From a virus, in IMG/VR virus record IMGVR_UViG_3300045988_157167, positions 1 to 64,000 of that record: a stretch of DNA of 64,000 bases. The stretch is one strand, 5' to 3'. A program made the translations under genes and the position numbers. The notes under the pieces were generated by a model, which worked only from the letters and a program-made list of their open reading frames with translations, did no database searches and was not told where the DNA came from. This document shows, in pieces, positions 9,470 through 33,479 of this stretch (positions within the stretch are counted from its first letter, which is position 1; every line of letters begins with the position of its first letter).

Positions 9470-11464
9470 CTAATCCAACCACCTTTCATTAAAAATGATA
9501 GAACTTGTAATATCAGCATCACTTGAAATTTTTAAATTATATTCACCTGGAGGTATTTCAAAGAAGTTGCTGCCTATGTCGACATGTTCCATGTTTTTTA
9601 CATTATTTATATAAACTTCATTGTTAGCAAAATCTACTTTTAATGTATCGCCTTGCTTAAAAATAGTTGTATTAAATTCTTCATCTTCTCCATCTTCGTT
9701 TAATTTTTCTACAACTAATCTATTAAAAGTCATTGTATCAACAACTTTTTTATCTGCATATTTACCAAAGAAGATAACAAGATGATTTAAATCTCCAAGA
9801 GGAAACTTATCACTCTTCATTCTTTCACTTGGCAATGTTTTTATTATTTCTCCAGCCTCATTGTATTTTATTACTTCTGCATACCATTCATTATTTTCTC
9901 TTCTTATTGTAAAATGTCCTTTAAATTCGTTCCAGTTTCCTGTTTTACCACTTCTAGGTGTTTTTTTAGTAACAGTTAAACTATCATCAGACCCAGTTGT
10001 TGTAATTATCGGGTCGATTTTAGGTATACTAAATTCTGCATCTTTTAAAAACTCTACATTTCCAACTTGCACAAGTGGATAAGTAGCTTCAAAGTATTCG
10101 TTTTCATCACAAAGCATAACTTTAAAAAGTTTATTACCTTTTTGATCTAAGCCATAACATTCGACGATGCCCATTTTATCTTCTGCTGTATCAACTTCTT
10201 TGTCTGTTTCTATTTGAACTTTATCTCCTTCTATAATGTAATCTGTATAAACATATCCAGTTTGGCCTTTATAAGTTGCTTTAGTATATTTACCTTCTTT
10301 ACTCTTTGGATATACAACAATACAAGTGCCTTTTGGGATTGTAGCTAAAAGCTTTGATTTTTTACTTCCAGTAGCTCTTAAAGAAACTGATTGTTTTGTG
10401 TAATAATTTGCTGTTGTTACTGTAACTTTTTTCAAACCTGTTGAAATTTTTATCCAACCTGTTTGACTACTATAAGTAGTTTTTATCCAGCCGTTTACAA
10501 TCTCATCAGCAGTTAAATAAATACCTTTTTTTATACTTATCAAAGTTTTACTACTAGAAAGTCTTTTTTCTTTTAGTTTTACAGTGGTAGATGTTACTTT
10601 GTATTTAGTCTTTTCTGTTAAACTTGTAGAGCCAGATTCATTATATTCAAGTTTTCCTGTACTATCATGATAAAAATACATACTACATTCAAAATTCGTT
10701 ACATTTTCAGATAAGTTATATCTTAGTGCCGGTCCATGCCAATCGTCTCCACTACCATAATCAGCTGCCTGTATGCACCAACTAGAACCTCCATCGTTTG
10801 GTTGTATTGTTCCGCTTATTGACCTTTTGGCATCGACTTCTCCCGTTACTGATACAAATTTTTCTGTAGTTTCACAAGGCTCATCAACAATAGTAGAACT
10901 TTTTTCTTTTTTCTCATTAGTTAAGCGAGGATATTCACCAACAAGAATTGCTTTTTCGTTTTGGCCATCTATTTGACAATAAGTTGCTTCACCATTAAAA
11001 TCAACCTCGACTATTGCAGGAGTGCTTGTATTTCCCTCATTTACAACACTTAGAGTTTTTTGGCCATTAAAAAGTTTAGCATTTATATTGTGTGAAAAAG
11101 GAATAGGGCATATAAATGACATTTTTATTCTTCGCATACCTTTAGTGATTTTTTCTTTTGAAAATTTACCATCAGGAATTGCTAAATAAACTCTTTCATT
11201 ATCATCAATAACAAGTTTCTTTTCTTCAGAAACATCAAATATAGATGACAACGTATCAATAATATCTTTACAATCTTCCTCTGTATCTGCTTTTATATCA
11301 AAAGTAATTGTTATTTCTTTATAATCATATTTAGAATTTTGATAATATCGACCATTTTCAGATGGAGGATCTAAAAAGTTATTTACTCTTTCTGACATCA
11401 AAGTTGTATCTATTGAAATAACTTTGACAAACATTTCTAAATCAATGTCATTAAACTTAAACAC
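9470..11464 (-). CDS. distal tail protein (Dit) with inserted SH3b-like domains
   Basis: Lies immediately downstream of the TMP with a siphovirus tail-family N-terminus. The central part has two SH3b-like segments (...GIYLTADEIVNGWIKTTYSSQTGWIKIS; ...GTCIVVYPKSKEGKYTKATYKGQTGYVYTDYI). Confidence 0.75.
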   Translation of the reverse strand: MFKFNDIDLEMFVKVISIDTTLMSERVNNFLDPPSENGRYYQNSKYDYKEITITFDIKADTEEDCKDIIDTLSSIFDVSEEKKLVIDDNERVYLAIPDGKFSKEKITKGMRRIKMSFICPIPFSHNINAKLFNGQKTLSVVNEGNTSTPAIVEVDFNGEATYCQIDGQNEKAILVGEYPRLTNEKKEKSSTIVDEPCETTEKFVSVTGEVDAKRSISGTIQPNDGGSSWCIQAADYGSGDDWHGPALRYNLSENVTNFECSMYFYHDSTGKLEYNESGSTSLTEKTKYKVTSTTVKLKEKRLSSSKTLISIKKGIYLTADEIVNGWIKTTYSSQTGWIKISTGLKKVTVTTANYYTKQSVSLRATGSKKSKLLATIPKGTCIVVYPKSKEGKYTKATYKGQTGYVYTDYIIEGDKVQIETDKEVDTAEDKMGIVECYGLDQKGNKLFKVMLCDENEYFEATYPLVQVGNVEFLKDAEFSIPKIDPIITTTGSDDSLTVTKKTPRSGKTGNWNEFKGHFTIRRENNEWYAEVIKYNEAGEIIKTLPSERMKSDKFPLGDLNHLVIFFGKYADKKVVDTMTFNRLVVEKLNEDGEDEEFNTTIFKQGDTLKVDFANNEVYINNVKNMEHVDIGSNFFEIPPGEYNLKISSDADITSSIIFNERWLD

Positions 11465-14400
11465 TTGTTATTCCCTCCAATCTATTTAATCTTTTTTCAT
11501 CTCGTTTATTTTTTTCATCTATAGGTTTTGCAATTATATCTACAACTTTTACTTTATCCATATTAGCTTGGACTTGGATAGGTCTATCACTTATATCTCC
11601 TATAGTTTCTTTTAATGTTTCTCCTAGCGAATTAGCTATTTCTTTTACTGTGTTATTACTTACACTATTTACAATTTTAAGATTACTGTTACTACTAGCT
11701 TCTAATGAAAATTTAGTTGTTTCAGATTGAACAGCCATTTTCATTGCATTTTGCATTTCTGAAGTTACATCCCTAGCTACGGCATATACTTGTTCAGCTT
11801 TATTTTTCATACCAACAATTAAACCTTCGTCCATATATTCTCCATAATCAGTGGTAACTTTTGAAGGCGAATTTATTTTAGCAGTTTTTTTCATTTCTGC
11901 ATTAACTTGATTAACAAGACTTCTTGCTGCACTAACTGCTCTTGCTGTACCACTTTGAATGCCTTGAGTAACACCATTTGCTAATTGTTGACCAATTTCT
12001 CTTGATTGAGTTCTAGCAACATTTTTCATGCTTATCATTTGTCTTGTAAAGTTATTTCTTGCTTCTCTTGATTGAGTAGTTATAACTCTTTTCATTGATA
12101 TCATTTGATATGTAACAGCATTTCTAGCAAGTGTAATTTGTGTTCTAGATACATTTCTAATTGATATCATTTGAGATGTAAGTTTATTCCTAGCCTCTGA
12201 AACTTGAGTTGATATAACATTCTTCATGCTTATCATTTGTGATGTAACAACATTTCTAGCATTTGTAATTTGATTACGTATTATATTACTAATAGATAGA
12301 AATTGGTTTCTTACTATATTAGATACATTTAAGCATTGATTTCTAGCTACGTTTGATATACTTACAAATTGATTTCTTGCTATATTTGCACATCCAACTA
12401 AACTAGTTCTTAAATTATTTTGTAATGATGTAAATGCTTGAGAAATTGAATTTGAAACACTTTGTACTGTTGTCTGTAAAGCTGTTAATTGTGTTTGTAA
12501 TGCTTTTATTTCATCTGTGTTCATACTAGAAAGTTTAGAATTTATTTTGTTACTATTAGAATCTTTGCTAGTATTAAGAGGTTTTTCATTACCAGTCTTT
12601 TCATCAGCATAAGATTCCCCTGTAAACCAATTTACTAAACCTTGTATTATACCGGTACCACCTTTGCTAAAATCAGGTTTAGAACTAGTAATCCAACTTG
12701 TTATTGCTTGCCAAAGTTCTGATGCTCTACCAGTAAATCTGTCAGTTAAGTTTTCAATAAAACTATCAATAAAAATATCTGCAAAGCTACCAGTTAAAGA
12801 TTTTATTTGTTCACTTCCTTCTACCCAGGAATTCATTACTGATGCAACTGCTTCTAAAGCATCATGTATATTGTCTGAATTGTTTTTTATTCCATCTCTT
12901 AAAGCATCTAAAATAACTTTACCAGCTTCCTCAACTTCTGGAGCAACATCTTTAATAAATTGAGAAATTTGTTTAATAGCACTTGAAATACCTTCTCTTA
13001 TATCACCTTTACTTTTTATAATTCCTTGACAAATTTGATGTATAATTTCTTTACCGATAGCTAATACTCTGCTTAATCCACCTTTAGTTATAAAAGTATT
13101 AATTCCACTAAAAGCCTGTTGAATTGCTCCTGATATATCTGCATTTCTTATATATCCAAGCATATTGTCTAATGCTTTTTTGAAATTATCAAATGTATAT
13201 AAGACTTGGCCATCTTCTACAGTGCCTTCTTTATTTCCACTTCTCCAAACACTGAAAAACTCAGCTAATTTTTCAGAAGTAGATTGAATAGCTGGTTTTA
13301 AGAACTCAAATCCTTCTATAGCAACGTCTTGCAAAGCAGATGATAAAATTAATAATTTGTTTTTAGTTGTTTCATCCATAGCTTGCGCCATTTTTTCAGA
13401 TAATCCAGTTACTAAATTTAAATTATCACAATATAATTTGAATTGTTCATCAGATAAACCACATATTTCATTTATTTCATCTAAAGAATCAGATAAACCT
13501 AAATTTGTTAAAATTTGTTCTCTAGTCGCTTGATCCATGTTGCCAAATTTTTCTCTTAACTGAGTTAAATTTGCTATTAAGTCTATTTGGCCGGTAGATG
13601 CGCTTTTAGCAGACATTCCATATTCTTTTAATACTTTATTAGCTTCCTTAAGTGACATATCTGGATTTAACTTATCAATTATTTCTTGTTTAGAAACAAC
13701 ATCTTTTAACCCTTTAGCACTATCTACTATTCCTTTTGTATTTTCATTAATCATGTCACAAGTAGCACTATAGTCAAAAGCATCATCATTAATTTCTTTA
13801 TAAGTTAATCCAAGTTCTTTAAATTGCTTTTTCTGAGAATTTGTAGGATTTCTCATTGCATCTAATACACCGAATAAATCTTCAACATTTTTCGATGTTA
13901 CTTTTGCATCAGAACCTAAAACTTGTAATGCTAAAGCCATATCTTGTGTAGTCATGTTGAATGCAGCACCTAAATATTCTGTTTGACTTAAAACTTCTTT
14001 TAAGTTATCTATTCTTTTACTACATTCTTCTCCAGTAACTCCTGCTTCTCCTAAATTTTGATTCCAATAAGAAACTGTTTGAGTAGAGTTTTGTACACTA
14101 TCAGTTAAACTATCATATGCATCATCTGTAGCATTAACAATTGATAGTAAACCTGTCATACCCGTTTTCCCAGCTAAATCTTTACATGCAGCTGCTTGCT
14201 CAACTAAAGGTAATGATTTTAAACTACTTCTTAAATTTCTTAATGTTTTATCTAAGTCAACTGAACCATCTTTCGCAGTAATAAGTTCTATTCCGTATTT
14301 TTCCATGGCCTTTGCTACAGTATCGGTAGGTGCACTTAAATTTGCCAATAGTGTTCTCATTGCAGTACCTGCACGACTTCCCTTTACTGATGAATTCGCC

Positions 14401-14687
14401 ATAAGGCCGATAGCTACGGATAAATCATCCATAGAAACGCCCAATGTCCCAGCTACTGAACCCGCATATTTCATTGTTTCTCCCATCATTTCAACATCTG
14501 TATTACTACGAGTAATAGTTGCTGCCATATAGTCAACAAAGTTTGATGCTTGAGATGCGGACATATTCATTGCTGTAAGACCATCAGTGACGATATCACT
14601 AGCTGTGCCAAGCTGAGTGGCCCCAATTGTAGTTAAGTTTAAAACATCTTTAATTGATGCGAGTGACTCTTGAAGTGAAAATCCAGC
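11457..14687 (-). CDS. tail tape measure protein, exon 2 (1076 aa)
   Basis: Begins AGFSLQESLASIKDVLNLTTIGATQLGTASDIVTDGL, continuing the conserved TMP core from exon 1. The 15 codons upstream (MEIIHKVYQSFTYRY) fall inside intron domain VI. Confidence 0.85.
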   Translation of the reverse strand, partial: AGFSLQESLASIKDVLNLTTIGATQLGTASDIVTDGLTAMNMSASQASNFVDYMAATITRSNTDVEMMGETMKYAGSVAGTLGVSMDDLSVAIGLMANSSVKGSRAGTAMRTLLANLSAPTDTVAKAMEKYGIELITAKDGSVDLDKTLRNLRSSLKSLPLVEQAAACKDLAGKTGMTGLLSIVNATDDAYDSLTDSVQNSTQTVSYWNQNLGEAGVTGEECSKRIDNLKEVLSQTEYLGAAFNMTTQDMALALQVLGSDAKVTSKNVEDLFGVLDAMRNPTNSQKKQFKELGLTYKEINDDAFDYSATCDMINENTKGIVDSAKGLKDVVSKQEIIDKLNPDMSLKEANKVLKEYGMSAKSASTGQIDLIANLTQLREKFGNMDQATREQILTNLGLSDSLDEINEICGLSDEQFKLYCDNLNLVTGLSEKMAQAMDETTKNKLLILSSALQDVAIEGFEFLKPAIQSTSEKLAEFFSVWRSGNKEGTVEDGQVLYTFDNFKKALDNMLGYIRNADISGAIQQAFSGINTFITKGGLSRVLAIGKEIIHQICQGIIKSKGDIREGISSAIKQISQFIKDVAPEVEEAGKVILDALRDGIKNNSDNIHDALEAVASVMNSWVEGSEQIKSLTGSFADIFIDSFIENLTDRFTGRASELWQAITSWITSSKPDFSKGGTGIIQGLVNWFTGESYADEKTGNEKPLNTSKDSNSNKINSKLSSMNTDEIKALQTQLTALQTTVQSVSNSISQAFTSLQNNLRTSLVGCANIARNQFVSISNVARNQCLNVSNIVRNQFLSISNIIRNQITNARNVVTSQMISMKNVISTQVSEARNKLTSQMISIRNVSRTQITLARNAVTYQMISMKRVITTQSREARNNFTRQMISMKNVARTQSREIGQQLANGVTQGIQSGTARAVSAARSLVNQVNAEMKKTAKINSPSKVTTDYGEYMDEGLIVGMKNKAEQVYAVARDVTSEMQNAMKMAVQSETTKFSLEASSNSNLKIVNSVSNNTVKEIANSLGETLKETIGDISDRPIQVQANMDKVKVVDIIAKPIDEKNKRDEKRLNRLEGITSV

Positions 14688-15368
14688 ATACCGATAGGTA
14701 AAACTTTGATATACTTTATGTATAATCTCCATCTTTTCCCCCGGTCCAAACCGTACGTGCGACTTTCATCGCATACGGCTTTCCATCGTAAAATTTTACG
14801 ACTAGAGGCCTTCGCTCCTAATAGTTTTATCCTCCTTTATACATTACTGTATATAGTAACTATCGGCTATTAATCAACACTACTATGCTTCCTCTGACTT
14901 CTTCTATTTTCAACGATATAGCAATCTCCAATAGAAGATCTCCTAAGTTCCAATAAGATTATCCCTTTTTTTACTTCGACTTAGGTTTCCTCTGTATGTT
15001 ATAAGCTATATATAACTGACTACTTTAATCATCATATATTTAGTAAAACTTTAAATGTAAACAAAGTACGAATGTTTACATTAACTTATAACACTTCAAA
15101 CAAGGATTCGTCTCCTAACCATATCAAAGTTTTTAAAGATGACCACTCCATATAGTTATTTATATAACATCAGGCTTTGTCCTTACCGTACTTTATACAA
15201 TTCGAGTGCTATCTCTTATGCATAACGGGGTATCATCAATATCACTTTAAAGTAGTTGTGATAGAAAGAAATTTCATCTTTCAATTCATCTTATTAGTTA
15301 AAGTTATAAATAACCTCTCAGCTTTTGTTCTCTATCTCAGAGCTTTTATATGCTGAAACTTAGCGTAC
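14688..15368 (-). mobile_element. ORF-less group II intron (681 nt) in the tape measure gene
   Basis: The minus strand starts GUACG and ends ...CGGUAU. Domain V AAGCCGUAUGCGAUGAAAGUCGCACGUACGGUUU lies at 14748-14781, followed by a DVI-like helix with a bulged A. There is no ORF, and the exons join in frame. Confidence 0.85.
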
Positions 15369-15926
15369 CATACCCATGTATTGGAAAGCTTCACTTACCT
15401 CTGTACTGGTGTACCTAGTGGTTGCTCCGTATTGCCTAGTTGTTTCTGTTAAGACTTCAATATCTTTTCCAGTAACACCCATAATTGCTGATACACGAGC
15501 CATTGAACTTTCAAATTCAATAGCATCTGCCATTAAGGAACTGAAATCAAAATTAAAATCTGTAACTTGACTAAAACAATCTAAAATAGTATTTGTTGCA
15601 TTCTGAACTATATCTACAACAGGCTGTAATTTTTCAGATATATTTTGCAAGTTTTCAAAGAAATTCTGTTTACTAGCATCATATAGTTTTGAAAAAGCAG
15701 TTATCATTGTAGTTACTGCTGCAACAACTCCAGCCGCAACTGGTCCAACAATTCCACTTAAAGCTTTAAAGGTATTTGAAAATGTTCCAACAATAGAACT
15801 CATTTCTCCAAATACTTTGCCAACACCACCTAAATCAGCAAAGGCATTTTTAAGTTCATTTAACTGACCTTCAACTTGGTCAGATTTTAATTCAACTTCT
15901 ATAACAACTTTTCCATCTGCTGCCAT
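15369..15926 (-). CDS. tail tape measure protein, exon 1 (186 aa)
   Basis: Ends ...FESSMARVSAIMGVTGKDIEVLTETTRQYGATTRYTSTEVSEAFQYMGM. The track ORF continues VR-stop into the intron. Confidence 0.85.
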
Positions 15927-23978: not shown

Positions 23979-24734
23979 TCATCTTATAACTATAAAATAA
24001 CATTTACAGAAGTTATGCTGTGGTATTAAATCATAAGCTTCTTCAGCGGTTAAAATAGTACCATGCATACTTTCACAATCACTGCATGTTCTTTCTTCTA
24101 AAACTGAACAATACATAAATTTTTTATCTCTATTACAATAAATAAAGATATCATTTGCTATTCTACTAAGCTCAGATATCAATATTCCTCTTGCTCTTTT
24201 TCTACTCATCTTTTGTCTTTGTGTTAGCCATGATGCAATATTATATAAATTCTTCTTATTATAAGCTATTTTCAATCTTTTTTTAGTTCGATTGTTTATT
24301 TTAGCCATATTGCTTTGTATTCTTTGCTTATACGTTTTACTTTTGTATTTTCTATTTAATATTTTCTGTTTTTCTTCATTGTCTACAAAATATCCAAAAT
24401 ACTCTACAATTTCTTCAAACATTTCATCAAAGAAGTTATCTATTAAATCTTCAAGCCATTCATCTTCGTTATTAAGCATTGATAGAACTGCTATAACAAT
24501 AAATCTTTCAGCACTTTCGTAATCTTTTGATGTTTTTTCTATTTGATAAGCAAAATTAGCAGTTTCCATCAACTCTCTAATCTGCTTATCTGTTTTATTC
24601 ATCTTTTTAAGATATTTTTCAAGTTCCTGTTCGGCCTGATTATATGCTTTTTCCATGAAACTTTTAGTTTCTTCAGCACTTCTATTCTTCGATGTTTGCT
24701 TCTGTGTGTTGGTGTTTGTCGCCATACAATTCAC
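23979..24734 (-). CDS. head morphogenesis protein (SPP1 gp7 / Mu F-like)
   Basis: Downstream of the portal gene, with a C-terminal Cys motif CSDCESMHG...PQHNFCKCYF typical of this family. The true start may be internal because the ORF overlaps the portal gene by 53 nt. Confidence 0.7.
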   Translation of the reverse strand: MNCMATNTNTQKQTSKNRSAEETKSFMEKAYNQAEQELEKYLKKMNKTDKQIRELMETANFAYQIEKTSKDYESAERFIVIAVLSMLNNEDEWLEDLIDNFFDEMFEEIVEYFGYFVDNEEKQKILNRKYKSKTYKQRIQSNMAKINNRTKKRLKIAYNKKNLYNIASWLTQRQKMSRKRARGILISELSRIANDIFIYCNRDKKFMYCSVLEERTCSDCESMHGTILTAEEAYDLIPQHNFCKCYFIVIR

Positions 24735-26094
24735 CTAAACTTTCATCTTCCCTCTTCATTTCTTCTTCATATTCTCTTGCAATTTGTCTTTGTTCAGCAT
24801 CTAAATCTACTATAAATCCAAATCTACTTGATGCTGTTCTCTTGGAAATAACTCCAGGAGGAACTTGACTAAGCATTTGAGCTGTAGCTAAATCATCTTG
24901 AGGGATATTTGCAGTATAAATAATTTTTATTTTTTTCCAATCAAAATTCTTTGCTTTGAAGTAATTTATATAATTGCACCAAAATTTCAATCTATTTGTA
25001 ACTATATTTGAGTGAGCATTTATTTGAAGTGCACATTTATTTTCCAGTGCTATTAATCTACTTCTAAGTGTAATTCCGCTTAAATTTGATTGTAATCTTT
25101 CGTTGTGATTTATATGACAACTTATTTGATACATATCATCTTTATATCTGTCTAGCGTATTTTGTACAAAAGTATCGTTAATTTGCTTAATTAACCATTG
25201 AATTTTACCTTCTTTACCTACCATTAAGATGCCTTTTTTCTTCATTTCTAAAATTGGATCTATTTTCATTTCTTTTCCGGTTTCTTCATCAACAACTATT
25301 TTTTCTTCTTCAAATTCACAATCTGTCATAACCATATATGCGTTTCTAAAGTCTGAAATTTCATTTCCTAAATCAGATAAATTAGTTTCATAAGCATCTT
25401 GTAAACCTTTTAAGTCTTTATATAAACTATCTTCTGTTAGTTCTTCAGTTAATTTTCCTACTGAAACAGGTATTGTACCAAATCTATGGTTTGTTGGAGG
25501 TTCAACTTGATTAAACTCTCTATCTAAATGATAAATACATTTTTTTGTATAAACATCTATATGATAAACATCTACATCTAAATGTTCTACTTTTACATCC
25601 ATATAAAACAAAACATTGTCATATTCATCTTGATATGCATATCCTGTTAAAGGAGTTGAAATAACACTTTTAAAACCTTCTTCATCATATCGATAAAGTT
25701 CAAATACTTTTGTAAATATAACCATGTATTTCATTAAGTCACTATCATGATTTTTATTCCATAAAGCCATAGTTGATGTTAATTCATCCAATAAACCTGG
25801 TTGTTCTTTACTTTCATAAGTAATAGGATTTCCTACAGTATAAGAGACCTCTTCCTTTACAAATTTTTTAAAAAAATTAGTATTTACTTTTAAATTCGAC
25901 CTTTGTGTAATTGTTTTGTAATCGGCCATAGCATCTGTATTGCCTTTATAATAGTCATACATTTTTTGATATTTATGTAAATCAGACTCAAAACATTGAT
26001 ACATATATCTGACAAAATTTAAATGATCAGGAATATTCAAATCTAAAGCCATTCCTTTTTTTAGACCATCTACGATTTCTGCTACAGTCTGCAT
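24682..26094 (-). CDS. portal protein (SPP1 Gp6-like)
   Basis: 470 aa; size and position downstream of the large terminase gene. Confidence 0.8.
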   Translation of the reverse strand: MQTVAEIVDGLKKGMALDLNIPDHLNFVRYMYQCFESDLHKYQKMYDYYKGNTDAMADYKTITQRSNLKVNTNFFKKFVKEEVSYTVGNPITYESKEQPGLLDELTSTMALWNKNHDSDLMKYMVIFTKVFELYRYDEEGFKSVISTPLTGYAYQDEYDNVLFYMDVKVEHLDVDVYHIDVYTKKCIYHLDREFNQVEPPTNHRFGTIPVSVGKLTEELTEDSLYKDLKGLQDAYETNLSDLGNEISDFRNAYMVMTDCEFEEEKIVVDEETGKEMKIDPILEMKKKGILMVGKEGKIQWLIKQINDTFVQNTLDRYKDDMYQISCHINHNERLQSNLSGITLRSRLIALENKCALQINAHSNIVTNRLKFWCNYINYFKAKNFDWKKIKIIYTANIPQDDLATAQMLSQVPPGVISKRTASSRFGFIVDLDAEQRQIAREYEEEMKREDESLGELYGDKHQHTEANIEE

Positions 26095-26531: not shown

Positions 26532-28283
26532 TTACACACCCAATCTCCTTCTATCCATGAACCTAATTATATTTTTTGTTTTTATTTTTAGTATTTTATT
26601 TGCAAAATCAGAAACAACATCTGCAGCATCATCATGTAGTGTATATGCTGTTCCTTGAAAGTCTAATATCTGATCTGTAAATGCTTTATTATTATCTGCA
26701 AATATTATTTGGCCATTATTAACTGGATCTTGTATAGTTGCAATACGATTATCTTTATTTTTATTATTCATATCATTAATAAATATTAAATTTCTTTTCT
26801 TTAGTTCAGGTATCTTTTCAATCATTTGTTGTATAGTAGTTACATCTGAACCTAAGTAGGTATTTCTTTCTATAGATATATGAGTTATATCTGTAAATTC
26901 TAATAAAATATCAATAATTGTATTACAATACTCTGTGAAACTCATTTTTTCAAGTACCATTCTTCTGATATATTTAAAGTCATTTTCTCCTAATGAACCT
27001 ACTATCATTGCAAATGAGTCAGTTTTCTTTTTCTTATTAGAAGAATTATCTCCCGCTGGGTCAACACAAAGCATTGTTTTTAAAAAAATATGGTCCTCTA
27101 TTTCCTCTACTGATTGAGTTCTTATAGATTTAAACCATTTTTCACCTATACTACTAGCATCATTCATTTTTTCTGACATAAATGATTTTCTATTACTCCA
27201 GTATTTAACTGCTATATCTATAAAAAAATCCCATTTTTCTTCCCATAAAACAGGATATTTCATTTCTTCTTTATGTTTTTCATAAAATTTTCTAGCTTGT
27301 ATTTGAGGATCTTCTATTTTATCGTCAAAATAAATCTTTTTACATTTAATCCATAAATCACTTTCAAATATATCATCTATTGTTTGGCCATCTTCTAATA
27401 AAACAGCTCTATTCATAATAGTATGATAATCTCTATTTCTGCTAAGTTTACTTATTAAGCAATCAATATGTAAAACAGTTCCTATACTTACAAACTTAGT
27501 TGCTGATTTAACTTTTTTACCTTTTCTAAATACTGCAGTATCTCCAACTTCCTCTACTTCTTTACACCATCTATTCCATTTCTTTTCTCTAGCATCTTCA
27601 GTTATAACATCAACTTCGGATTGATAGTCATCGGCAATAACCACCGTAGGTCTTACACCTCCCCAGTTAGCACCACGGACAGAAGTAGTTGAACCTACTG
27701 CTCTTATATATGTATCATTGGTAAACTCAATTTCGCCTGAATTAACCTTGTAATAATCTTTCGAATTAGGCTTTTTACCTTTTAAATCTATTAAGTTTCC
27801 AAATACATCTTTTATAAGCTCATTTTCCAGGAATTCTTTTTTTATAGAATTTAAGAATTGCTCGGCATCATCTGCAGTTTTAGCACCTAATAGAGTAAAC
27901 TTTGATTTTTTATAGCAATGTAACCATATTGCAAGTGTTTTATCGCATATAGTTGACTTAGCAAGTCCTCTAGGTTCTACTATATTAAGTTTATCGTATA
28001 AATCCTGTACAAAGGCCTCCGAGAGAACTCTCCATATTTTATAATGTTCTTCACATAATTCCCTTGCACTGTTGTCATCACTTGGCACGAAAGTTGTTCT
28101 AAGAAAATATAAACTAAAAAAAGTTATATCCTTTTCTCCAATTACCTTTGCAACTTCATTAGGAAGATATTTTTTTCTGATATTATTTTGATTTTTAGGA
28201 AAATATTTCTTTAAATACTTATCAATCAAGTATATAGAGTATTTATTATCATCAGCAAACTCTATATCATCAAAATAAATCAT
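26532..28283 (-). CDS. terL: terminase large subunit
   Basis: 583 aa with a Walker A-like VEPRGLAKST and an acidic VVIADDYQSE motif. Located upstream of the portal gene. Confidence 0.85.
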   Translation of the reverse strand: MIYFDDIEFADDNKYSIYLIDKYLKKYFPKNQNNIRKKYLPNEVAKVIGEKDITFFSLYFLRTTFVPSDDNSARELCEEHYKIWRVLSEAFVQDLYDKLNIVEPRGLAKSTICDKTLAIWLHCYKKSKFTLLGAKTADDAEQFLNSIKKEFLENELIKDVFGNLIDLKGKKPNSKDYYKVNSGEIEFTNDTYIRAVGSTTSVRGANWGGVRPTVVIADDYQSEVDVITEDAREKKWNRWCKEVEEVGDTAVFRKGKKVKSATKFVSIGTVLHIDCLISKLSRNRDYHTIMNRAVLLEDGQTIDDIFESDLWIKCKKIYFDDKIEDPQIQARKFYEKHKEEMKYPVLWEEKWDFFIDIAVKYWSNRKSFMSEKMNDASSIGEKWFKSIRTQSVEEIEDHIFLKTMLCVDPAGDNSSNKKKKTDSFAMIVGSLGENDFKYIRRMVLEKMSFTEYCNTIIDILLEFTDITHISIERNTYLGSDVTTIQQMIEKIPELKKRNLIFINDMNNKNKDNRIATIQDPVNNGQIIFADNNKAFTDQILDFQGTAYTLHDDAADVVSDFANKILKIKTKNIIRFMDRRRLGV

Positions 28284-28337
28284 CTAATCACTCCCTTCTG
28301 AATTTATTTACATAAAAAAAGAGCAGCCAATTAATAA

Positions 28338-28592
28338 CTACTCTTTTGTATTTTTCTTTTTAACATATTTTTTCTTCTTTGATTTATTTTTCTTCTTAGG
28401 AAAAGTCTTTTCTAGTTTGCTTTTAGTCATTGCTCTACCATTTAGGTAACAAATAACTTCTTCTTTTTCTTGCTTACTCTTTTTAACGATATTGTGAGAC
28501 GTTTTTCCATTGATAAATTTATTCATAACCCCAAAATTTCTAGAGTTTTTATCTTTTTCAACATTTAAATAAGCTAATTCATATAATTTCAT
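28338..28592 (-). CDS. hypothetical lysine-rich protein (84 aa)
   Basis: The track ORF extends to 28694 but that part overlaps the tRNA. AAAGGGAGAA is followed at good spacing by ATG at 28592 (MKLYELAYLNVEK...). Confidence 0.5.
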   Translation of the reverse strand: MKLYELAYLNVEKDKNSRNFGVMNKFINGKTSHNIVKKSKQEKEEVICYLNGRAMTKSKLEKTFPKKKNKSKKKKYVKKKNTKE

Positions 28593-28615
28593 AGACATTC
28601 TCCCTTTAAATTTAA

Positions 28616-28693
28616 TGGCTGGCTTAGTGAGATTCGAACTCACAACAAACCATGGTCCGTAGCCATGTGCTCTATCCGTTGAGCTATAAGCCA
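28616..28693 (-). tRNA. tRNA-Arg (anticodon ACG), CCA encoded
   Basis: Hand-folded cloverleaf: acceptor UGGCUUA/UAAGCCA, D stem GCUC/GAGC, anticodon stem CAUGG/CCAUG with loop CUACGGA, T arm GUGAG-UUCGAAU-CUCAC. The variable loop is unusually long at 7 nt. Confidence 0.75.
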
Positions 28694-28699
28694 ATATCT

Positions 28700-29560
28700 A
28701 TTAGAAGGCTTGAGATTAGAGCCTTCTGTAGACACCTTTCACGGCATTATTTATTCTCCGTTTATCCACGCACCTAATACGTATTGTCCATGACTGGTTG
28801 TAATTTTATAGTGCCACAAAACCCTAACACGAGGCACTCTACTATAGTACTACTCAACACTTCGTATTCTGTCTGCCTTGCGAGCAACAAAGGTTTGCAA
28901 AACCACCATGCAACTTCATGTTAAACGATTCACCCTTGGGAGGTGTTACGCACTAGATTATATCATGCAATGATATTCTAGTATTAAGCCACTTTCATAC
29001 TATAAGGGAACAGACTTTTCCTTTTATTGTTTTGTTATCATAGACAATTTATCATCCAAAATTAATATTCTCTATGCCTGTATAAATCTGAATTAAATTT
29101 GACAGACGTTGTGCTGTTCTTGAAGATTCGTTTCCTTTTGAGACACGAAATACTTCACAACATCAGTGTGTTTCATTGAATTCTTACTCCACGTTGTTAA
29201 TACATACTCCAGCCCTTTCACTGTTTCACTATTAACAATGGTTAGTGCCCTTTGTTATCAGCATCGGACTATATAACCTCCTGATTATGTCTCGCTACAT
29301 GACCAATTTGGCGTGAGGTAAATTATTCAGTGCCACCTGAAAATCTTCGATATACGGTTCGCCTTTTCGAAGACTGTCCCTCTTGGGTTACGTAGTTATC
29401 TCCACTACTATCAATTCATGAAGACGTTGGACATTCAGTTCTGCTTAGATGGACTAGTTTAACTAGCGGCATGTAGTCAGCATGCCTTTACACTGCTCAC
29501 ACAATGCTATCCTAAAGATACTAAGCTACCTAAAATAGATTTAGATTTATTTTTTAAAAC
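28700..29560 (-). ncRNA. large (~870 nt) highly structured noncoding RNA between two tRNAs; GOLLD/ROOL-class candidate
   Basis: No ORF on either strand, and visibly GC-richer than the flanks. Many local helices, e.g. GGCAUG-CUGACUA-CAUGCC, UCUUCGA...UCGAAGA, AGUGCC...GGCACU, AGAAGGCU-CUAAUCUCA-AGCCUUCU. Shares its promoter with tRNA-Gln. Confidence 0.6.
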
Positions 29561-29567
29561 ACATACA

Positions 29568-29641
29568 TGGCTGGGCGTAATAGATTCGAACTATTATTCC
29601 AGGAATCAAAATCCTGTGTCCTACCTTTGAACGAACACCCA
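29568..29641 (-). tRNA. tRNA-Gln (anticodon UUG), CCA encoded
   Basis: Hand-folded 74-nt cloverleaf: acceptor UGGGUGU/ACGCCCA, D stem GUUC/GGAC, anticodon stem CAGGA/UCCUG with loop UUUUGAU, T arm AAUAG-UUCGAAU-CUAUU. Confidence 0.85.
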
Positions 29642-29660
29642 ATATTTAACTGATAATTAT

Positions 29661-29706
29661 ATTCTAATCTCCCAACAATATTTTTTCAATCGGAACATAT
29701 TCCTAA
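29661..29706 (-). promoter_or_regulatory. promoter of the tRNA-Gln/large RNA/tRNA-Arg unit with upstream conserved 19-nt motif
   Basis: Minus strand: TTAGGAATATGTTCCGATT (29706-29688) overlaps -35 TTGAAA (29689-29684). A 17-nt spacer precedes -10 TAGAAT (29666-29661), and the tRNA starts at 29641. Confidence 0.65.
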
Positions 29707-29730
29707 TAAAAAAAGCCAGATTTCTCTGAC
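29707..29730 (-). terminator. intrinsic terminator after the recombinase gene
   Basis: The minus strand reads GUCAGA-GAAA-UCUGGC followed by UUUUUUUAU. Confidence 0.65.
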
Positions 29731-29757
29731 TTTTAAAATGTATTATTATTTATTTTC

Positions 29758-30339
29758 TTATTGATATTCTTTCATTCTTCTAATTAGTGTAGCTTTGCTT
29801 ATTCCTGTTACTTCTGTAACTTGCTTATAACTCATGCCACTTTGCTTTAGATCAATGGCATGCTTAATTTGTTTATTTGAATACTTTTGCGGTCTACCTT
29901 CCGTAAAATCTTCTCTTTGTCTAGCTATTGCCTTGCCTTCTTTTGTTCTTTCAACTATCATGTCTCTTTCAAATTCGGCAAATCCAAGGAAGATAGTTCT
30001 TATTAGCTTTCCGTTAGGTGTATTATCCATTAAACCTAAGTTTACTATATGAACCTTTATATCTTGTTCTAGTAATTTGTCTATTATGCTTAATCCATGT
30101 ATTGTACTTCTAGCAAATCTGTCTAACTTAGTTACTACTAATGTATCTCCTGGTTTTAATTGTTTAAGAAGTTTATCAAAATTTTTGCGATCTTCTTGTT
30201 TCTTTGTTCCAGTATAAGAATCAACTACTATGTTTTCTTCTAAACACCCATTTGCTAATAATATTTCTGTTTGACCTTCTAATGAGTTTCCATCTTTCTT
30301 TTGTGAGTAAGTACTAACTCTTGCATATCCATATTTCAT
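29758..30339 (-). CDS. small serine recombinase (resolvase/invertase family)
   Basis: 193 aa with the N-terminal catalytic motif [25 protein letters not shown], and a C-terminal HTH ([24 protein letters not shown]). Confidence 0.9.
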
Positions 30340-30438
30340 ATTTACAACCCCCTATGATTATCTTTTATACTTATATTGTATCATAAGTCTTAAAAGTTGT
30401 AAACCTATTTATGGACTTTAAATATTTGTTTTTAACAT

Positions 30439-31701
30439 TTAAACATATGCAAATGTATATCCATGCGTTGTTTTTCCTTTTCCTTGTAATACCCTTTCTA
30501 TATTTTTTCTTGGGATATTTAGTTTTCTTGCACAAATCCCTATTCCCTCAATAATTTCTTCTGAATTATCTTTTAAATTTGTTGCTTTAATAGTTTTCTT
30601 AGGAGCAACATTTTTGCTATATTTAGCTTTTACTGCCAATATAGAAGTGTAATCCTTACTTTCTATATATGGAATTAACTGTTGTTTTACATTTATAGCA
30701 TCTTCTTCTGTTTTAAAATGGCCTATTGGTATCTGATTTCCATTAAAGGTTATTCTTAAAAACCAACTTTTCCTTTTAATATCATAATTAACTCCTTTTT
30801 CTTTGCTCTTATACATATTTTTATTTCTTATTTTTCTTAGCTTTTTACATTGCTCTTGTAATCCTTCTCTTTCACACATTTTTTCAAGTGTATATCTCGA
30901 ATGTCCAGTAAAATTTTCCATATCTATAAACGTTTCGATACCTTTTTCCATTCCTTTTAAAAATTTTTGTTTCATTCGAGTATTTTTCACATCTTTAAAA
31001 ACTTTACCATAATCTTTTATTTTTTCTTTGTAAAAAATAGTTCTAATGCTATTTTCTGCAAGATTATATTTATTACAAAGTTCTTCTAAAGAATAATTAT
31101 AAGAATATAAATCCTCTATAATTTTTTTATTTCTACACTCTATAAAATTTAATTGTTTGATTTTTTCATTTAAATCGGATCTCACATCTATCCAAGAGTC
31201 AAGATTTTTAATGCTATAAATGATATTTTCTCTAACTCCAGTTAATTTAGATATTTTCTTTATAGAGATTGGATTATTTTCTAGTACTGACAACATTTCC
31301 TTAACCTTAGCAATTTGATGCTCTGTATAATCACTTCTTTCTCTATTTACTTTCTTTAAATTTTCTAATCTTTTCTTTCGTATTTCTTCTGGAATTTCAT
31401 TTAGAAAATAGTCTCCACCTTCTGTCATATTAAATCCATTATTATAAGTATCATATTTTTTTATATAATACTTTTCTAAATCATTTAAAATGTCAAGTTC
31501 ATCACAATAATATATAGCTTTAAACTTAAAAGCATCTTCTCCATATTTATTCCAACTTCTTTGAAGATATTCATTATCATGATTACCTCTATTTAAAGCA
31601 CTTATATGGCTTTTCCATCTTTTTTCAAAATCTTGGATCGTTTGTCCTATATACATATCACCTGTTACTACATTTGTTATTGAGTAAATTCCAAAATACA
31701 T
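30439..31701 (-). CDS. GIY-YIG homing endonuclease with AP2-like DNA-binding domain
   Basis: GIYSITN...YIGQT...RWKSH...N..LQRSWNKYG matches the GIY-YIG module. The central part has HTH repeats. The C-terminal GVNYDIKRKSWFLRITFNGNQIPIGHFKTEEDA is AP2-like. Confidence 0.85.
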   Translation of the reverse strand: MYFGIYSITNVVTGDMYIGQTIQDFEKRWKSHISALNRGNHDNEYLQRSWNKYGEDAFKFKAIYYCDELDILNDLEKYYIKKYDTYNNGFNMTEGGDYFLNEIPEEIRKKRLENLKKVNRERSDYTEHQIAKVKEMLSVLENNPISIKKISKLTGVRENIIYSIKNLDSWIDVRSDLNEKIKQLNFIECRNKKIIEDLYSYNYSLEELCNKYNLAENSIRTIFYKEKIKDYGKVFKDVKNTRMKQKFLKGMEKGIETFIDMENFTGHSRYTLEKMCEREGLQEQCKKLRKIRNKNMYKSKEKGVNYDIKRKSWFLRITFNGNQIPIGHFKTEEDAINVKQQLIPYIESKDYTSILAVKAKYSKNVAPKKTIKATNLKDNSEEIIEGIGICARKLNIPRKNIERVLQGKGKTTHGYTFAYV

Positions 31702-31740
31702 TCTATCTCACCTCTTAATTATATTATATCACAAACTTAT

Positions 31741-31780
31741 ATCAGTTACAATCAGTTGTAATCAGTTGTAATCAGTTGTA
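31741..31780. repeat. 4 x 10-bp tandem repeat ATCAGTT(A/G)(C/T)A, candidate RHH operator
   Basis: Sequence is atcagttaca atcagttgta atcagttgta atcagttgta, exactly phased. It lies between the divergent GIY-YIG and RHH genes. Confidence 0.8.
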
Positions 31781-31794
31781 ATATATTTTATAAT
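31766..31794 (+). promoter_or_regulatory. candidate promoter of the RHH gene embedded in the repeat array
   Basis: -35 TTGTAA (31766-31771) inside the last repeat, 17-nt spacer, -10 TATAAT (31789-31794). Confidence 0.55.
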
Positions 31795-31812
31795 TAACTC
31801 GAGGTGATTATT

Positions 31813-31971
31813 TTGGCAAGAAAAGATTTAAAAAACAGAGTTCCAATTGGTTCCGCTATTGATAAAGAGTTGTATCAATGGCTTAAAGAATATTCTAACC
31901 AATCATCTGTTCCAATATCTAAACTTTTAGATAAAGCTATTCAACTTCTTAAAGAGTCTACTGTTAAGTAG
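31813..31971 (+). CDS. ribbon-helix-helix (CopG-like) DNA-binding protein, 52 aa, TTG start
   Basis: Own reading: GAGGTGA RBS then TTG. Product is LARKDLKNRVPIGSAIDKELYQWLKEYSNQSSVPISKLLDKAIQLLKESTVK-stop, with a beta-strand/helix/helix pattern. Below the track cutoff. Confidence 0.6.
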   Translation: MARKDLKNRVPIGSAIDKELYQWLKEYSNQSSVPISKLLDKAIQLLKESTVK

Positions 31972-32039
31972 GCTTTTTATTTTTTCTCAAGTTTCCAAAA
32001 AATTTTTTGTAGGATTTTTTTTGAGGTTTCATTTTCCCC

Positions 32040-32500
32040 TCAAGTCTCATTTTTTGCTGAGCAGTTCTCTGTGGCTTGGCGCACGCGTTGAAAATACTAG
32101 GGTATAGAATGCACCGCCCCCTTACCTGGAGTACCCTACCCCACCGAGAGGCCCTTGTTTTGCCTTGTTACTTATGACACTAAGTTATAAGACAAGTAAA
32201 CATATTGATATCACTTACTATGTCGAAGTGTATCATAACTTATAAGTATTGATACCTTATAGAGTACTATTAATGCTGTTGTCTTTTACTATACTGGTCT
32301 TACTGTTCACTCTGTTGTCTTATACCTTCTGTGCGCCCTTCTAAGATGTTATACTTTGTCTTGCCTGTCCTTATTCTATTGGTAATATATTCCTTCTCTT
32401 AATAGTTCTTATAGCTTAATATTATTAAATCAACTATTTAAATAGTTTTTTAAGGGCAACACCTCGTAAATATGGACCGCGATAAGCGCCCCCCTACATT
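32040..32500. other. unassigned GC-rich structured noncoding region downstream of terS
   Basis: No ORF, with GC-rich blocks in an AT-rich genome. Pairings include TAGGGTA/TACCCTA (32098-32139), GGCGCAC (32079-32085) with GTGCGCC (32331-32337), and CTCTGTGG/CCACCGAG. Strand not determined. Confidence 0.4.
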
Positions 32501-32505
32501 CCCTC

Positions 32506-32973
32506 TTATGATATTTCACTATCTGTTATATCTATTACATTCCCTTCTATAACATCTGAATCATTAAAATCATCCCAAGAAGGCTCATTATTATTTTCTT
32601 TTTCAGTTTCAGGAGTAATAACTGTTTTAGTTTCCACTTTTGAAATTGGAGCGCCAGCCAATCTATTAAGTAAGTATATGCTTGCATCTAGTCTAACCTT
32701 CTCGCTCTTAGCTGATCTTGATAGGTCGAGAATATTTTGTAAAAGTTGATTAGAGAATTTCATTATACGATTGTCAACTTTATTTTTAGCAACTTCATAT
32801 TGTCTATCAAGTTCTTCCATGAATTCTGGTCTTTTCTTCCAGCGCATTATAGTTTTTTCACAAACATCTAATTGGTCTGCTACTTCTTTATTAGTTGCAC
32901 CATACACTAATAATTCTGCTGCAATTAATTGGTCTTCTGTTAACCTAGAATCTTTTTCTCGTGGCATAATCAA
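32506..32973 (-). CDS. terS: terminase small subunit-like HTH protein
   Basis: N-terminal HTH LTEDQLIAAELLVYGATNKEVADQLDVCEKTIMRWKKRPEF and an acidic C-terminus. It occupies the expected position upstream of the packaging genes, but ~4.2 kb away from terL. Confidence 0.6.
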   Translation of the reverse strand: MIMPREKDSRLTEDQLIAAELLVYGATNKEVADQLDVCEKTIMRWKKRPEFMEELDRQYEVAKNKVDNRIMKFSNQLLQNILDLSRSAKSEKVRLDASIYLLNRLAGAPISKVETKTVITPETEKENNNEPSWDDFNDSDVIEGNVIDITDSEIS

Positions 32974-33479
32974 TTACCCTCCTTCCTTTTTATTTCTTCT
33001 CTTAAGTGATAATATAAAATTTTATGGACCATTGAAGGTGATTCTTTTCTATCACATGCAATAATATGAAGATTATCGAATTTGGCCATTAATGAAATTA
33101 CCATAGCCGCGCTAGCGTTAGGATGAACATGGCTTATATATTCACCTTTTAAAAGTTTGATATAATAATCCTTGTCTTGTATAAGCAAGAATAATTTAAC
33201 TCCTGCTTCTTTTGCTCTTTTTAGTTCCCTTATAAAACGGTTATCTTTATTTTCGTCTTTTGCTGGATCCATTAAGTTTCCTAGCAATTCATCTAATCCT
33301 GCTTTTCTTTCTATTAAAATATTAGGTATATATTCTCCTTGATATCTAATAGCATAATCTCCAGTATCTAATTTTTCTCTACTGGCCTGTATTCCATTTT
33401 TTATAAGAGTATCTTGGATTAATGTATCTTGTTCCCTTGTATCGCATATAATTTCGTAATCTTCATTTTTTATTTTCAT
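32970..33479 (-). CDS. ERCC4-type nuclease domain protein
   Basis: Motif order CDTREQ ... LDTGDY ... LIERKAGLDEL matches the D-x-RE / GD(Y/F) / ERK signature of ERCC4/Mus81-like nucleases. Confidence 0.6.
   Translation of the reverse strand: MKIKNEDYEIICDTREQDTLIQDTLIKNGIQASREKLDTGDYAIRYQGEYIPNILIERKAGLDELLGNLMDPAKDENKDNRFIRELKRAKEAGVKLFLLIQDKDYYIKLLKGEYISHVHPNASAAMVISLMAKFDNLHIIACDRKESPSMVHKILYYHLREEIKRKEGN

Follow-up and report, generated by a model that had tools for sequence, protein, structure and literature searches.

A predicted GOLLD-family RNA with a divergent 5′ domain between two phage tRNA genes

The window analysed here is a stretch of viral DNA of 64,000 nucleotides (nt), positions 1 to 64,000 of IMG/VR record IMGVR_UViG_3300045988_157167, with a G+C content of about 27%. 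ARAGORN detected exactly two tRNA genes in the 64-kb window, one for Gln and one for Arg. The interval between them (29567-28694) contains no open reading frame (ORF) longer than 46 amino acids (aa) on either strand and almost certainly encodes a member of the GOLLD family of large RNAs. A preliminary description, made from the sequence of this DNA, had claimed two minus-strand tRNAs with encoded CCA ends that bracket an ORF-less interval of 873 nt. Both tRNAs were accepted by ARAGORN and by Rfam, and the bracketing and the lack of ORFs held; the length is 874 nt. The interval is also richer in G+C than its surroundings, as had been noticed, with values of 0.33-0.42 vs 0.23-0.30 in the flanks on either side. 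In what follows, GOLLD copies that resemble env-38, a GOLLD of solved structure, are called class A and those that resemble the window are called class B; both labels were coined in the present analysis. The unit is made up of the following features.

29568-29641, minus strand: tRNA-Gln(UUG) with encoded CCA (ARAGORN; Rfam tRNA model, 56.2 bits).
29536-29567, minus strand: A/U-rich spacer from tRNA-Gln to the GOLLD 5′ domain, recognised from the sequence and lying outside the class-B profile match (29527-29181).
29166-29535, minus strand: GOLLD 5′ domain of class B with 12 consensus helices (iterated nhmmer, RNAalifold, and pair counts with controls).
28707-29165, minus strand: conserved GOLLD 3′ domain, RF02032 model positions 1-416 (Rfam score and class-B covariation).
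29025-29105, minus strand: variable internal linker of the 3′ domain, A/U-rich and without a tRNA (Rfam and sibling alignments).
28694-28706, minus strand: short tail from the end of GOLLD to tRNA-Arg (sequence).
28616-28693, minus strand: tRNA-Arg(ACG) with encoded CCA (ARAGORN; Rfam tRNA model, 58.4 bits).

A scan of the whole window with Rfam 15 at gathering thresholds matched RF02032 at 187 bits, above the curated gathering score of 150 (E = 4.7e-51). The match covered all 416 model positions and was not truncated, and the stem of the terminal hairpin of the 3′ domain reaches 28703. Conserved GOLLD motifs were kept in the Rfam alignment, namely the UCAAAAG loop of the first hairpin, GAAAG, GAGUAG, GUGGAUAA, AAUAAAUAAU and UAAUCUCA. 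ROOL, OLE and raiA gave no match at E ≤ 1 on either strand of 28000-33000, and a permissive Rfam scan added noise only. The preliminary description had proposed a giant structured RNA of the GOLLD or ROOL type next to two phage tRNAs, had named OLE and raiA as further models to run, and had allowed for a new class. Because the full RF02032 model matched and ROOL, OLE and raiA did not, the choice between GOLLD, ROOL and a new class is settled as GOLLD; the giant RNA stands, with a 3′ half that is GOLLD and a 5′ half that covaries, and the other options fall away. Reportedly, the family was first described by Weinberg et al. in 2009. The identity as such is already known in kind: the family was reported in 2009, its structure was solved in 2025, and any routine Rfam scan would detect this copy.

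Folding of the single sequence contributes little, the minimum free energy (MFE) z-score of the whole 874 nt being only -2.35, and the argument is carried by covariation. In the 3′ domain, ten helices were 95-100% paired among 20 class-B sequences, with 2-9 covarying pairs each. The segment 28840-28730 was left unresolved by RNAalifold on the class-B alignment, yet it is paired in the Rfam alignment. All five helices named in the preliminary description were found at their expected places. Two of them are hairpins of the Rfam GOLLD model and covary: CACC..GGUG (28945-28931) and AGAAGGCU..AGCCUUCU (28727-28703). AGUGCC..GGCACU (28838-28810) shows only single compensatory changes in siblings (AGUGUC/GACACU in locus L024), and so does UCUUCGA..UCGAAGA of the 5′ domain (29373-29344; UCCUC/GAGGA in L004). 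The fifth, GGCAUG..CAUGCC, is helix 3 of the list below. A by-eye search of the 3′-domain loops for a symmetric kissing loop gave one candidate, UGCA in the loop 28972-28964 of the window; it was rejected, as it is not kept in siblings.

The Rfam model spans only the conserved 3′ domain, and the upstream ~370 nt (29535-29166) lie outside it. GOLLD loci were therefore taken from IMG/VR by means of two 3′-domain patterns and confirmed with Rfam and an nhmmer profile. Many contigs hold a nearly unchanged copy of the window unit, with a 5′ part 86-100% identical, and iterated nhmmer added several further sequence groups, in which remote relatives of the 5′ part precede the 3′ domain. From an alignment of 20 distinct sequences with a mean column identity of 68%, RNAalifold derived 59 pairs in 12 helices, 34 of which (pairs) show compensatory double changes. 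In the 5′ domain 97.3% of the cells were paired, vs 35-44% after the 3′ partners had been slid by 1-3 columns, and the covariation score was 0.61 vs 0.05-0.11 in the slid controls; none of 500 shuffles matched the observed values. The RNAalifold helices include the following.

29507-29501/29496-29490, minus strand: helix 2, capped by an invariant GUGA tetraloop.
29486-29482/29472-29468, minus strand: helix 3, GGCAUG..CAUGCC at 29486-29468, supported by covariation.
29467-29463/29457-29453, minus strand: helix of the 5′ domain.
29438-29435/29284-29281, minus strand: helix of the 5′ domain.
29278-29273/29245-29240, minus strand: helix of the 5′ domain.
29238-29230/29202-29194, minus strand: helix of the 5′ domain.

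The RNAalifold helix 8 (29337-29333/29325-29321) pairs poorly in the lineage of the window, and the alignment is rich in gaps in the centre of the domain (~29430-29290), where the consensus, like helix 8, is unreliable. Invariant residues of the 5′ domain concentrate in loops and junctions (GAUAG, the GUGA tetraloop, UAAAG and GGARAUA), a pattern that would be expected for an RNA with tertiary contacts. A GUAGGGAU-like motif occurs a few nt before the 3′ domain in class A and class B alike.

The 5′ domains of the two classes were compared with env-38 as a query, taken from the supplement of Kretsch et al. 2025 (816 nt, vs 833 nt stated there). Its 5′ 425 nt matched the 5′ regions of 50 collected loci with E-values of 1e-10 to 1e-51, and nhmmer matched none of the window-type loci among those collected; conversely, env-38 was not recovered by nhmmer with the window-type 5′ profile. 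A covariance model of the first three window-type hairpins (R1) recovered all window-type controls at 73-89 bits and no class-A locus. A distant structural relation of the two 5′ domains is possible. The 3′ domains differ in length as well, being 455-496 nt in class B vs 379-438 nt in class A. In locus L002 (1180-1248), a covariance model of the class-B hairpins H2-H4 matched at 35 bits (E = 2e-6) within a 5′ region that nhmmer assigns to neither class and that is seemingly shorter; this may be a third, reduced type of 5′ domain. The 5′ region of GOLLD has been called 'less conserved' or 'variable', and differences in it alter cage stoichiometry (PMC12286853, PMC12990946). At 370 nt, the window domain fits the ~300-420 nt expected of a structured GOLLD 5′ region. 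Since the literature already calls this region variable, we rank class B within the known family, as one of its branches, rather than as a kind of RNA in its own right. What appears mildly new, as judged without the architectures of Weinberg et al. 2009, is a divergent gut-phage branch whose cap domain differs, whose tRNA flanks are nearly obligatory and whose tRNA slot is exchangeable.

Class B is abundant. A class-B-specific 20-base pattern hit at least 115 loci of IMG/VR, and at least 124 viral contigs, most of them human-gut ones, carry the class-B 5′ domain. Among the matches listed, 116 of the 124 class-B 5′-domain loci carry the GOLLD 3′ domain on the same strand, and the offset from the 5′ to the 3′ domain is fixed at 16-18 nt in 111 of these 116. 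Seven of the eight loci without a 3′ domain end at the edge of the locus. In L152 (4502-4807; IMGVR_UViG_3300029431_000033), a class-B 5′ domain follows tRNA-Met and no GOLLD 3′ domain was found in the next 1.7 kb; the locus may have lost the 3′ domain by deletion, may be misassembled, or may hold a 5′ domain that stands alone. At least 77 distinct full-length class-B sequences were collected, which form 14 clusters at 97% identity, 9 at 90% and 6 at 80%. They measure 811-886 nt (median 848), in agreement with the published size of more than 800 nt (PMC12286853).

Flanking tRNA genes are the rule in class B. In 59 of 72 distinct copies, the 3′ end is followed at no more than 45 nt by a tRNA on the same strand (Ala-CGC, Arg-ACG, Ile-UAU, Arg-CCG, Arg-UCG or Thr-UGU), and in 58 of 73 a same-strand tRNA (Met or Gln) ends at most 120 nt before the 5′ domain, so that about 80% of the copies have a tRNA on each given side. 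The linker of the 3′ domain is a further site of tRNAs. Five of the 77 class-B copies, all in the window's own phage lineage, have a tRNA inside it. Locus L074, whose 5′ domain is 99.5% identical to that of the window, encodes tRNA-Ile(GAU) there (3092-3167), and L078, with a 5′ domain about 90% identical, encodes tRNA-Asn(GUU) (2671-2747). L004 (4389-4464) and its relatives hold a tRNA-like sequence with a four-base anticodon. The linkers of the window, L024 and L001 consist of an A/U-rich segment unrelated to the tRNAs of the siblings. In the solved GOLLD cages the linker is disordered and lies inside the lumen, and tRNAs in the linker have been noted (PMC12286853, PMC12990946).

When the whole unit of the window was compared by BLASTN with 50,697 GenBank phage records, only a tRNA was matched. 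Other class-B copies matched one GenBank phage, MT835469.1 (an uncultured faecal phage), and no cultured representative of class B was found in the GenBank phage collection searched. A protein of about 950 aa (PHROG 8308) is encoded on the same strand directly upstream of the tRNA-GOLLD unit in seven of nine class-B clusters (43 loci), for example in L147 (5165-8035) and in MT835469.1 (164866-167721). It has no sequence match in Pfam, NCBIfam or PDB, and the window has no homologue of it. The protein contains a conserved G[AC]DFDSD motif, which we take to resemble the motif with which two-barrel RNA polymerases (for example YonO) bind metal. In GenBank, remote relatives from phages of Thomasclavelia and Enterocloster are annotated as 'RNA-dependent RNA polymerase'.

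The signals around the unit are as follows.

29711-29734, minus strand: intrinsic-terminator-like hairpin that ends the upstream resolvase gene (29758-30339), a 10-bp stem followed by a T-run.
29661-29689, minus strand: candidate sigma-70/sigma-A-like promoter TTGAAA-17-TAGAAT, with 10 of 12 consensus matches and 19 nt from the -10 element to tRNA-Gln.
28338-28592, minus strand: small ORF of 84 aa with a Lys-rich C-terminus and a AAAGGGAG ribosome-binding site directly after tRNA-Arg, found as a gene in public assemblies.
28317-28347, minus strand: intrinsic-terminator-like hairpin between the small ORF and terL, 13 bp followed by U7 (-15.5 kcal/mol, z = -2.56).

The promoter-like site and the terminator of the recombinase (resolvase) gene are where the preliminary description had put them. 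The terminator-like hairpin at 29711-29734 is invariant in seven sibling loci, and the promoter candidate is kept in siblings, with TATAAT in place of TAGAAT in L074. The intergenic stretch that holds both is 97% conserved in the seven loci, whose resolvases are 69-100% identical. Terminator-like sites are enriched in the region (4 vs 0.7 ± 0.7 expected), and promoter-like sites are not (11 vs 10.0 ± 3.5 in shuffles). The 84-aa ORF is kept with the unit in sibling phages and is absent beside class-B GOLLDs of other lineages; its protein has no match in Pfam or PHROG. The preliminary description saw no terminator from tRNA-Arg to terL. None lies before the small ORF, but terL is preceded by the 13-bp hairpin with U7 at 28347-28317, which overlaps the small ORF's stop codon and at which the unit probably ends.

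Taken together, the region is very probably a GOLLD gene expressed together with its flanking tRNAs, and GOLLD and both tRNAs are probably made as a single shared transcript. The promoter-like site at 29689-29661 would start such a transcript about 13 nt ahead of tRNA-Gln, and the RNA would contain tRNA-Gln, GOLLD, tRNA-Arg and the small ORF in this order and would mostly end at 28347-28317. RNase P, which cleaves all tRNA precursors where the mature tRNA begins, would cut before tRNA-Arg (28694/28693) and free the GOLLD 3′ end, nine nt past the terminal hairpin, and 3′ maturation of tRNA-Gln would fix the GOLLD 5′ end near 29567. In Bacillus subtilis, tRNAs with an encoded CCA are not substrates of RNase Z. 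The 3′ trailer of tRNA-Gln, which is also the 5′ leader of GOLLD, would be cut by an endonuclease other than RNase Z and then trimmed. The resulting RNA of ~830-870 nt would fold as two domains and self-assemble into a closed dihedral homo-oligomeric cage, with a ring built of the 3′ domains, caps built of the 5′ domains and the linker of ~80 nt pointing toward the lumen. By analogy with the solved GOLLDs, we lean towards the view that the window RNA forms such a cage. The number of subunits is unpredictable, because the cap domain differs from those of the solved GOLLDs.

As for the role, our best guess, and the most likely one, is a function in the lytic cycle that is linked to phage tRNA supply or translation, because the tRNA flanks are persistent and the lumen-facing linker holds a tRNA in siblings. 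For another GOLLD, a rise of expression during phage lysis is reported in work cited in PMC12286853. A bolder idea, which we regard as doubtful, is that class B would be a distinct architectural branch in which the unrelated cap would give the cage another symmetry or size, the linker would serve as an exchangeable cargo slot, and the cage would hold tRNAs of the same transcript or time their release.

Several points weigh against this interpretation of the locus. The Rfam score of the window sits at the low end of the family, class-B copies scoring 166-194 bits vs 277-335 bits for env-38-like copies. The 5′ domain appears unrelated to the solved env-38 cap domain at the level detectable with nhmmer and the covariance model, so that only the 3′ domain serves as the basis for extrapolating cage formation and stoichiometry. 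Transcription and the RNA ends at the locus are read from the sequence, and the putative promoter matches a consensus that occurs in the region no more often than expected by chance. The GOLLD 5′ end would need a nuclease other than RNase Z, since tRNA-Gln encodes its CCA. The link to tRNA supply or translation is a guess from context.

Genes of a tailed phage surround the unit, including terS, terL, a portal gene and a tape-measure gene. Those needed below are the following.

32506-32973, minus strand: terS (PHROG 2538).
31804-31971, plus strand: Arc-like repressor gene (PHROG 3180).
26532-28283, minus strand: terL (45% identity with its counterpart in Clostridium perfringens phage vB_CpeS-1181, 37-38% with those in Clostridioides difficile phages).
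24682-26094: portal gene.

On the minus strand, terS is followed by a noncoding stretch of 530 nt, the Arc-like gene (on the other strand), a GIY-YIG endonuclease gene and the resolvase gene, and then by tRNA-Gln/GOLLD/tRNA-Arg, the 84-aa ORF, the terminator-like hairpin and terL. The unit thus lies between terS and terL, as the preliminary description had it, and shares the gap with the Arc-like, GIY-YIG and resolvase genes and the noncoding stretch. Sibling contigs have the same order, with the GIY-YIG module replaced by a second resolvase, which points to an insertion hot spot in the terS-terL gap. Public assemblies contain the exact terL protein in 247 blocks. The contigs stem from human-gut cohorts and measure 73-103 kb, and none exceeds 200 kb; this fits a free tailed-phage genome of ~74 kb that is common in the human gut. 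The resemblance of terL to Clostridium and Clostridioides phages (45% and 37-38%), together with the G+C content of ~27%, may loosely hint at the host. A search for the host among GTDB representative genomes with a 19-base 3′ motif returned eight matches, none of which had a GOLLD 3′ domain by nhmmer, and these were dismissed as chance.

Other explanations of the interval were weighed against a full-length GOLLD. The 5′ ~370 nt (29535-29166) might be an independent RNA or a leader beside a GOLLD that consists of the 3′ domain only. The Rfam model does cover 29165-28707 only, the upstream sequence is unrelated to the env-38 5′ domain, and the two halves diverge unequally (in L024 and L045 the 5′ domain is 100% identical and the 3′ domain more divergent). 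In L152 the 5′ domain stands without a downstream 3′ domain, and the 3′ domain of Streptococcus agalactiae GOLLD assembles alone (PMC12990946). We nevertheless consider a separate 5′ RNA very unlikely: the spacing of 16-18 nt holds in 111 of 116 loci over 6-9 clusters, the promoter and terminator scan reports no site between the halves, the total length fits a full-length GOLLD with the layout as published, and the GUAGGGAU-like motif stands at the domain boundary in both classes. The genomic habits of ROOL, which also occurs in phages with adjacent tRNAs, are the same as those seen here. With GOLLD matched across the whole model at E = 5e-51 and ROOL, OLE and raiA at E ≤ 1 in none of 28000-33000, the chance that the RNA is a ROOL or belongs to a new, unrelated class of giant RNAs is next to nil.

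The interval might also be a decayed coding gene, an objection that the preliminary description had itself raised, or a functionless spacer within a small cluster of tRNAs; long ORFs are absent, and the region is a mosaic full of mobile genes (GIY-YIG endonuclease, resolvase). Compensatory changes, however, preserve 34 of the 59 pairs of the 5′ domain and most 3′ helices, the homologues have no intact ORF across the region, the G+C content exceeds that of the coding flanks, and the sequence is conserved in at least 77 distinct copies. With both tRNAs accepted and covariation this strong, a decayed gene or spacer is scarcely credible. A packaging RNA like the phi29 pRNA, multimeric and acting with the terminase, would suit the position inside the packaging module, the synteny kept in siblings, and the multimeric state of GOLLDs (PMC12286853). 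In other class-B lineages, however, the RNA is embedded in tRNA arrays beside the PHROG 8308 protein, a beta-CASP nuclease and other genes, not terminase genes. The gap of the window phage and its siblings also hosts a changing set of mobile genes (a homing endonuclease, one or two resolvases), as in an insertion hot spot, and the published cages are closed and ~380 Å wide, unlike a portal ring (PMC12286853). A packaging role is thus extremely unlikely, and a full-length GOLLD expressed with its tRNAs remains our preferred explanation.

Some further observations concern the surroundings of the unit. The 530-nt noncoding stretch after terS (31975-32505, minus strand) contains G+C-rich blocks, e.g. 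at 32060-32165, has an MFE z-score of only -1.0 and was matched by no Rfam model at E ≤ 1. Its terS-proximal 221 nt show ~92% conservation in all siblings, and the remainder moves together with the Arc/GIY-YIG module. The stretch might be a pac site, a promoter region or a small RNA. A 10-nt tandem repeat at 31745-31790 (TACAACTGAT three times, then TGTAACTGAT) lies between the divergent Arc-like repressor gene and the GIY-YIG gene and looks like an operator array. The terL gene is intact in the window, and an insert of ~1.1 kb occurs in it in L001 (3615-4759), L012 (950-2094) and vB_CpeS-1181 (MW478292.1, 854-3790). The tape-measure gene (11457-15926) appears to be split at 14688-15360 on the minus strand. 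The upstream ORF (15360-15926) corresponds to positions 251-304 of the PHROG 1533 profile and the downstream ORF (11457-14732) resumes at 305; the ~670 nt between them contain no ORF of at least 80 aa, and Rfam Intron_gpII (domains V/VI) matched at 14688-14783 with 64 bits. A group II intron without an ORF appears to interrupt the gene.

Few natural RNAs are known to form closed cages in the absence of protein, and GOLLD is one of them. The class-B branch of the gut provides a ready comparison set for the determinants of stoichiometry and for the relation between the lumen and tRNAs, and it is easily sampled. In it the cap half is swapped for another well-conserved fold, and the slot gains and loses tRNAs between close phages. 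For annotation, Rfam marks only the 3′ 459 nt of a gene of ~830-870 nt.

Among known systems, ROOL shares with the window unit the character of a giant RNA of phages and prophages beside tRNAs and the formation of RNA-only cages, and differs in its unrelated sequence and fold, with no match in the window at E ≤ 1. The GOLLDs in tRNA arrays of Mycobacterium (Morgado et al. 2020, as cited in PMC12990946) are described there as lying among tRNA genes, some with a tRNA in the J13/15 linker. In that description they resemble class B, which is likewise embedded among tRNA genes and has a tRNA in the linker of some copies; they differ in belonging to chromosomal or plasmid tRNA arrays of Actinobacteria, whereas the window has a two-tRNA sandwich in a low-G+C gut phage and an empty linker. 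The GOLLD of S. agalactiae forms a dodecamer (PDB 9L0R), and its 3′ domain alone mainly a decamer (PDB 9LMF); it shows that changes of the 5′ domain alter the stoichiometry while the 3′ domain is kept (PMC12990946). It shares a Firmicutes-type host context with the window and differs in its 700 nt and reduced P1-P27 scheme (PMC12990946), the window being compared with it by description and with env-38 by sequence.

The cryo-EM structure of env-38 (PDB 9MEE) is a 14-mer (Kretsch et al. 2025, PMC12286853). The window differs from it in a 5′ domain with neither sequence nor covariance-model similarity to the env-38 cap and in a class-B 3′ domain that is ~50 nt longer; relative to the Rfam GOLLD consensus, the loop 28940-28936 reads CCCAA instead of CGCAA. 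Published GOLLDs combine a variable 5′ domain with a conserved 3′ domain (PMC12286853, PMC12990946). In common with env-38 and the Rfam family, the window unit has the full 3′ domain, two domains with a variable linker, a length of ~850 nt, a location in a phage with adjacent tRNAs, and tRNAs in the linker of its siblings.

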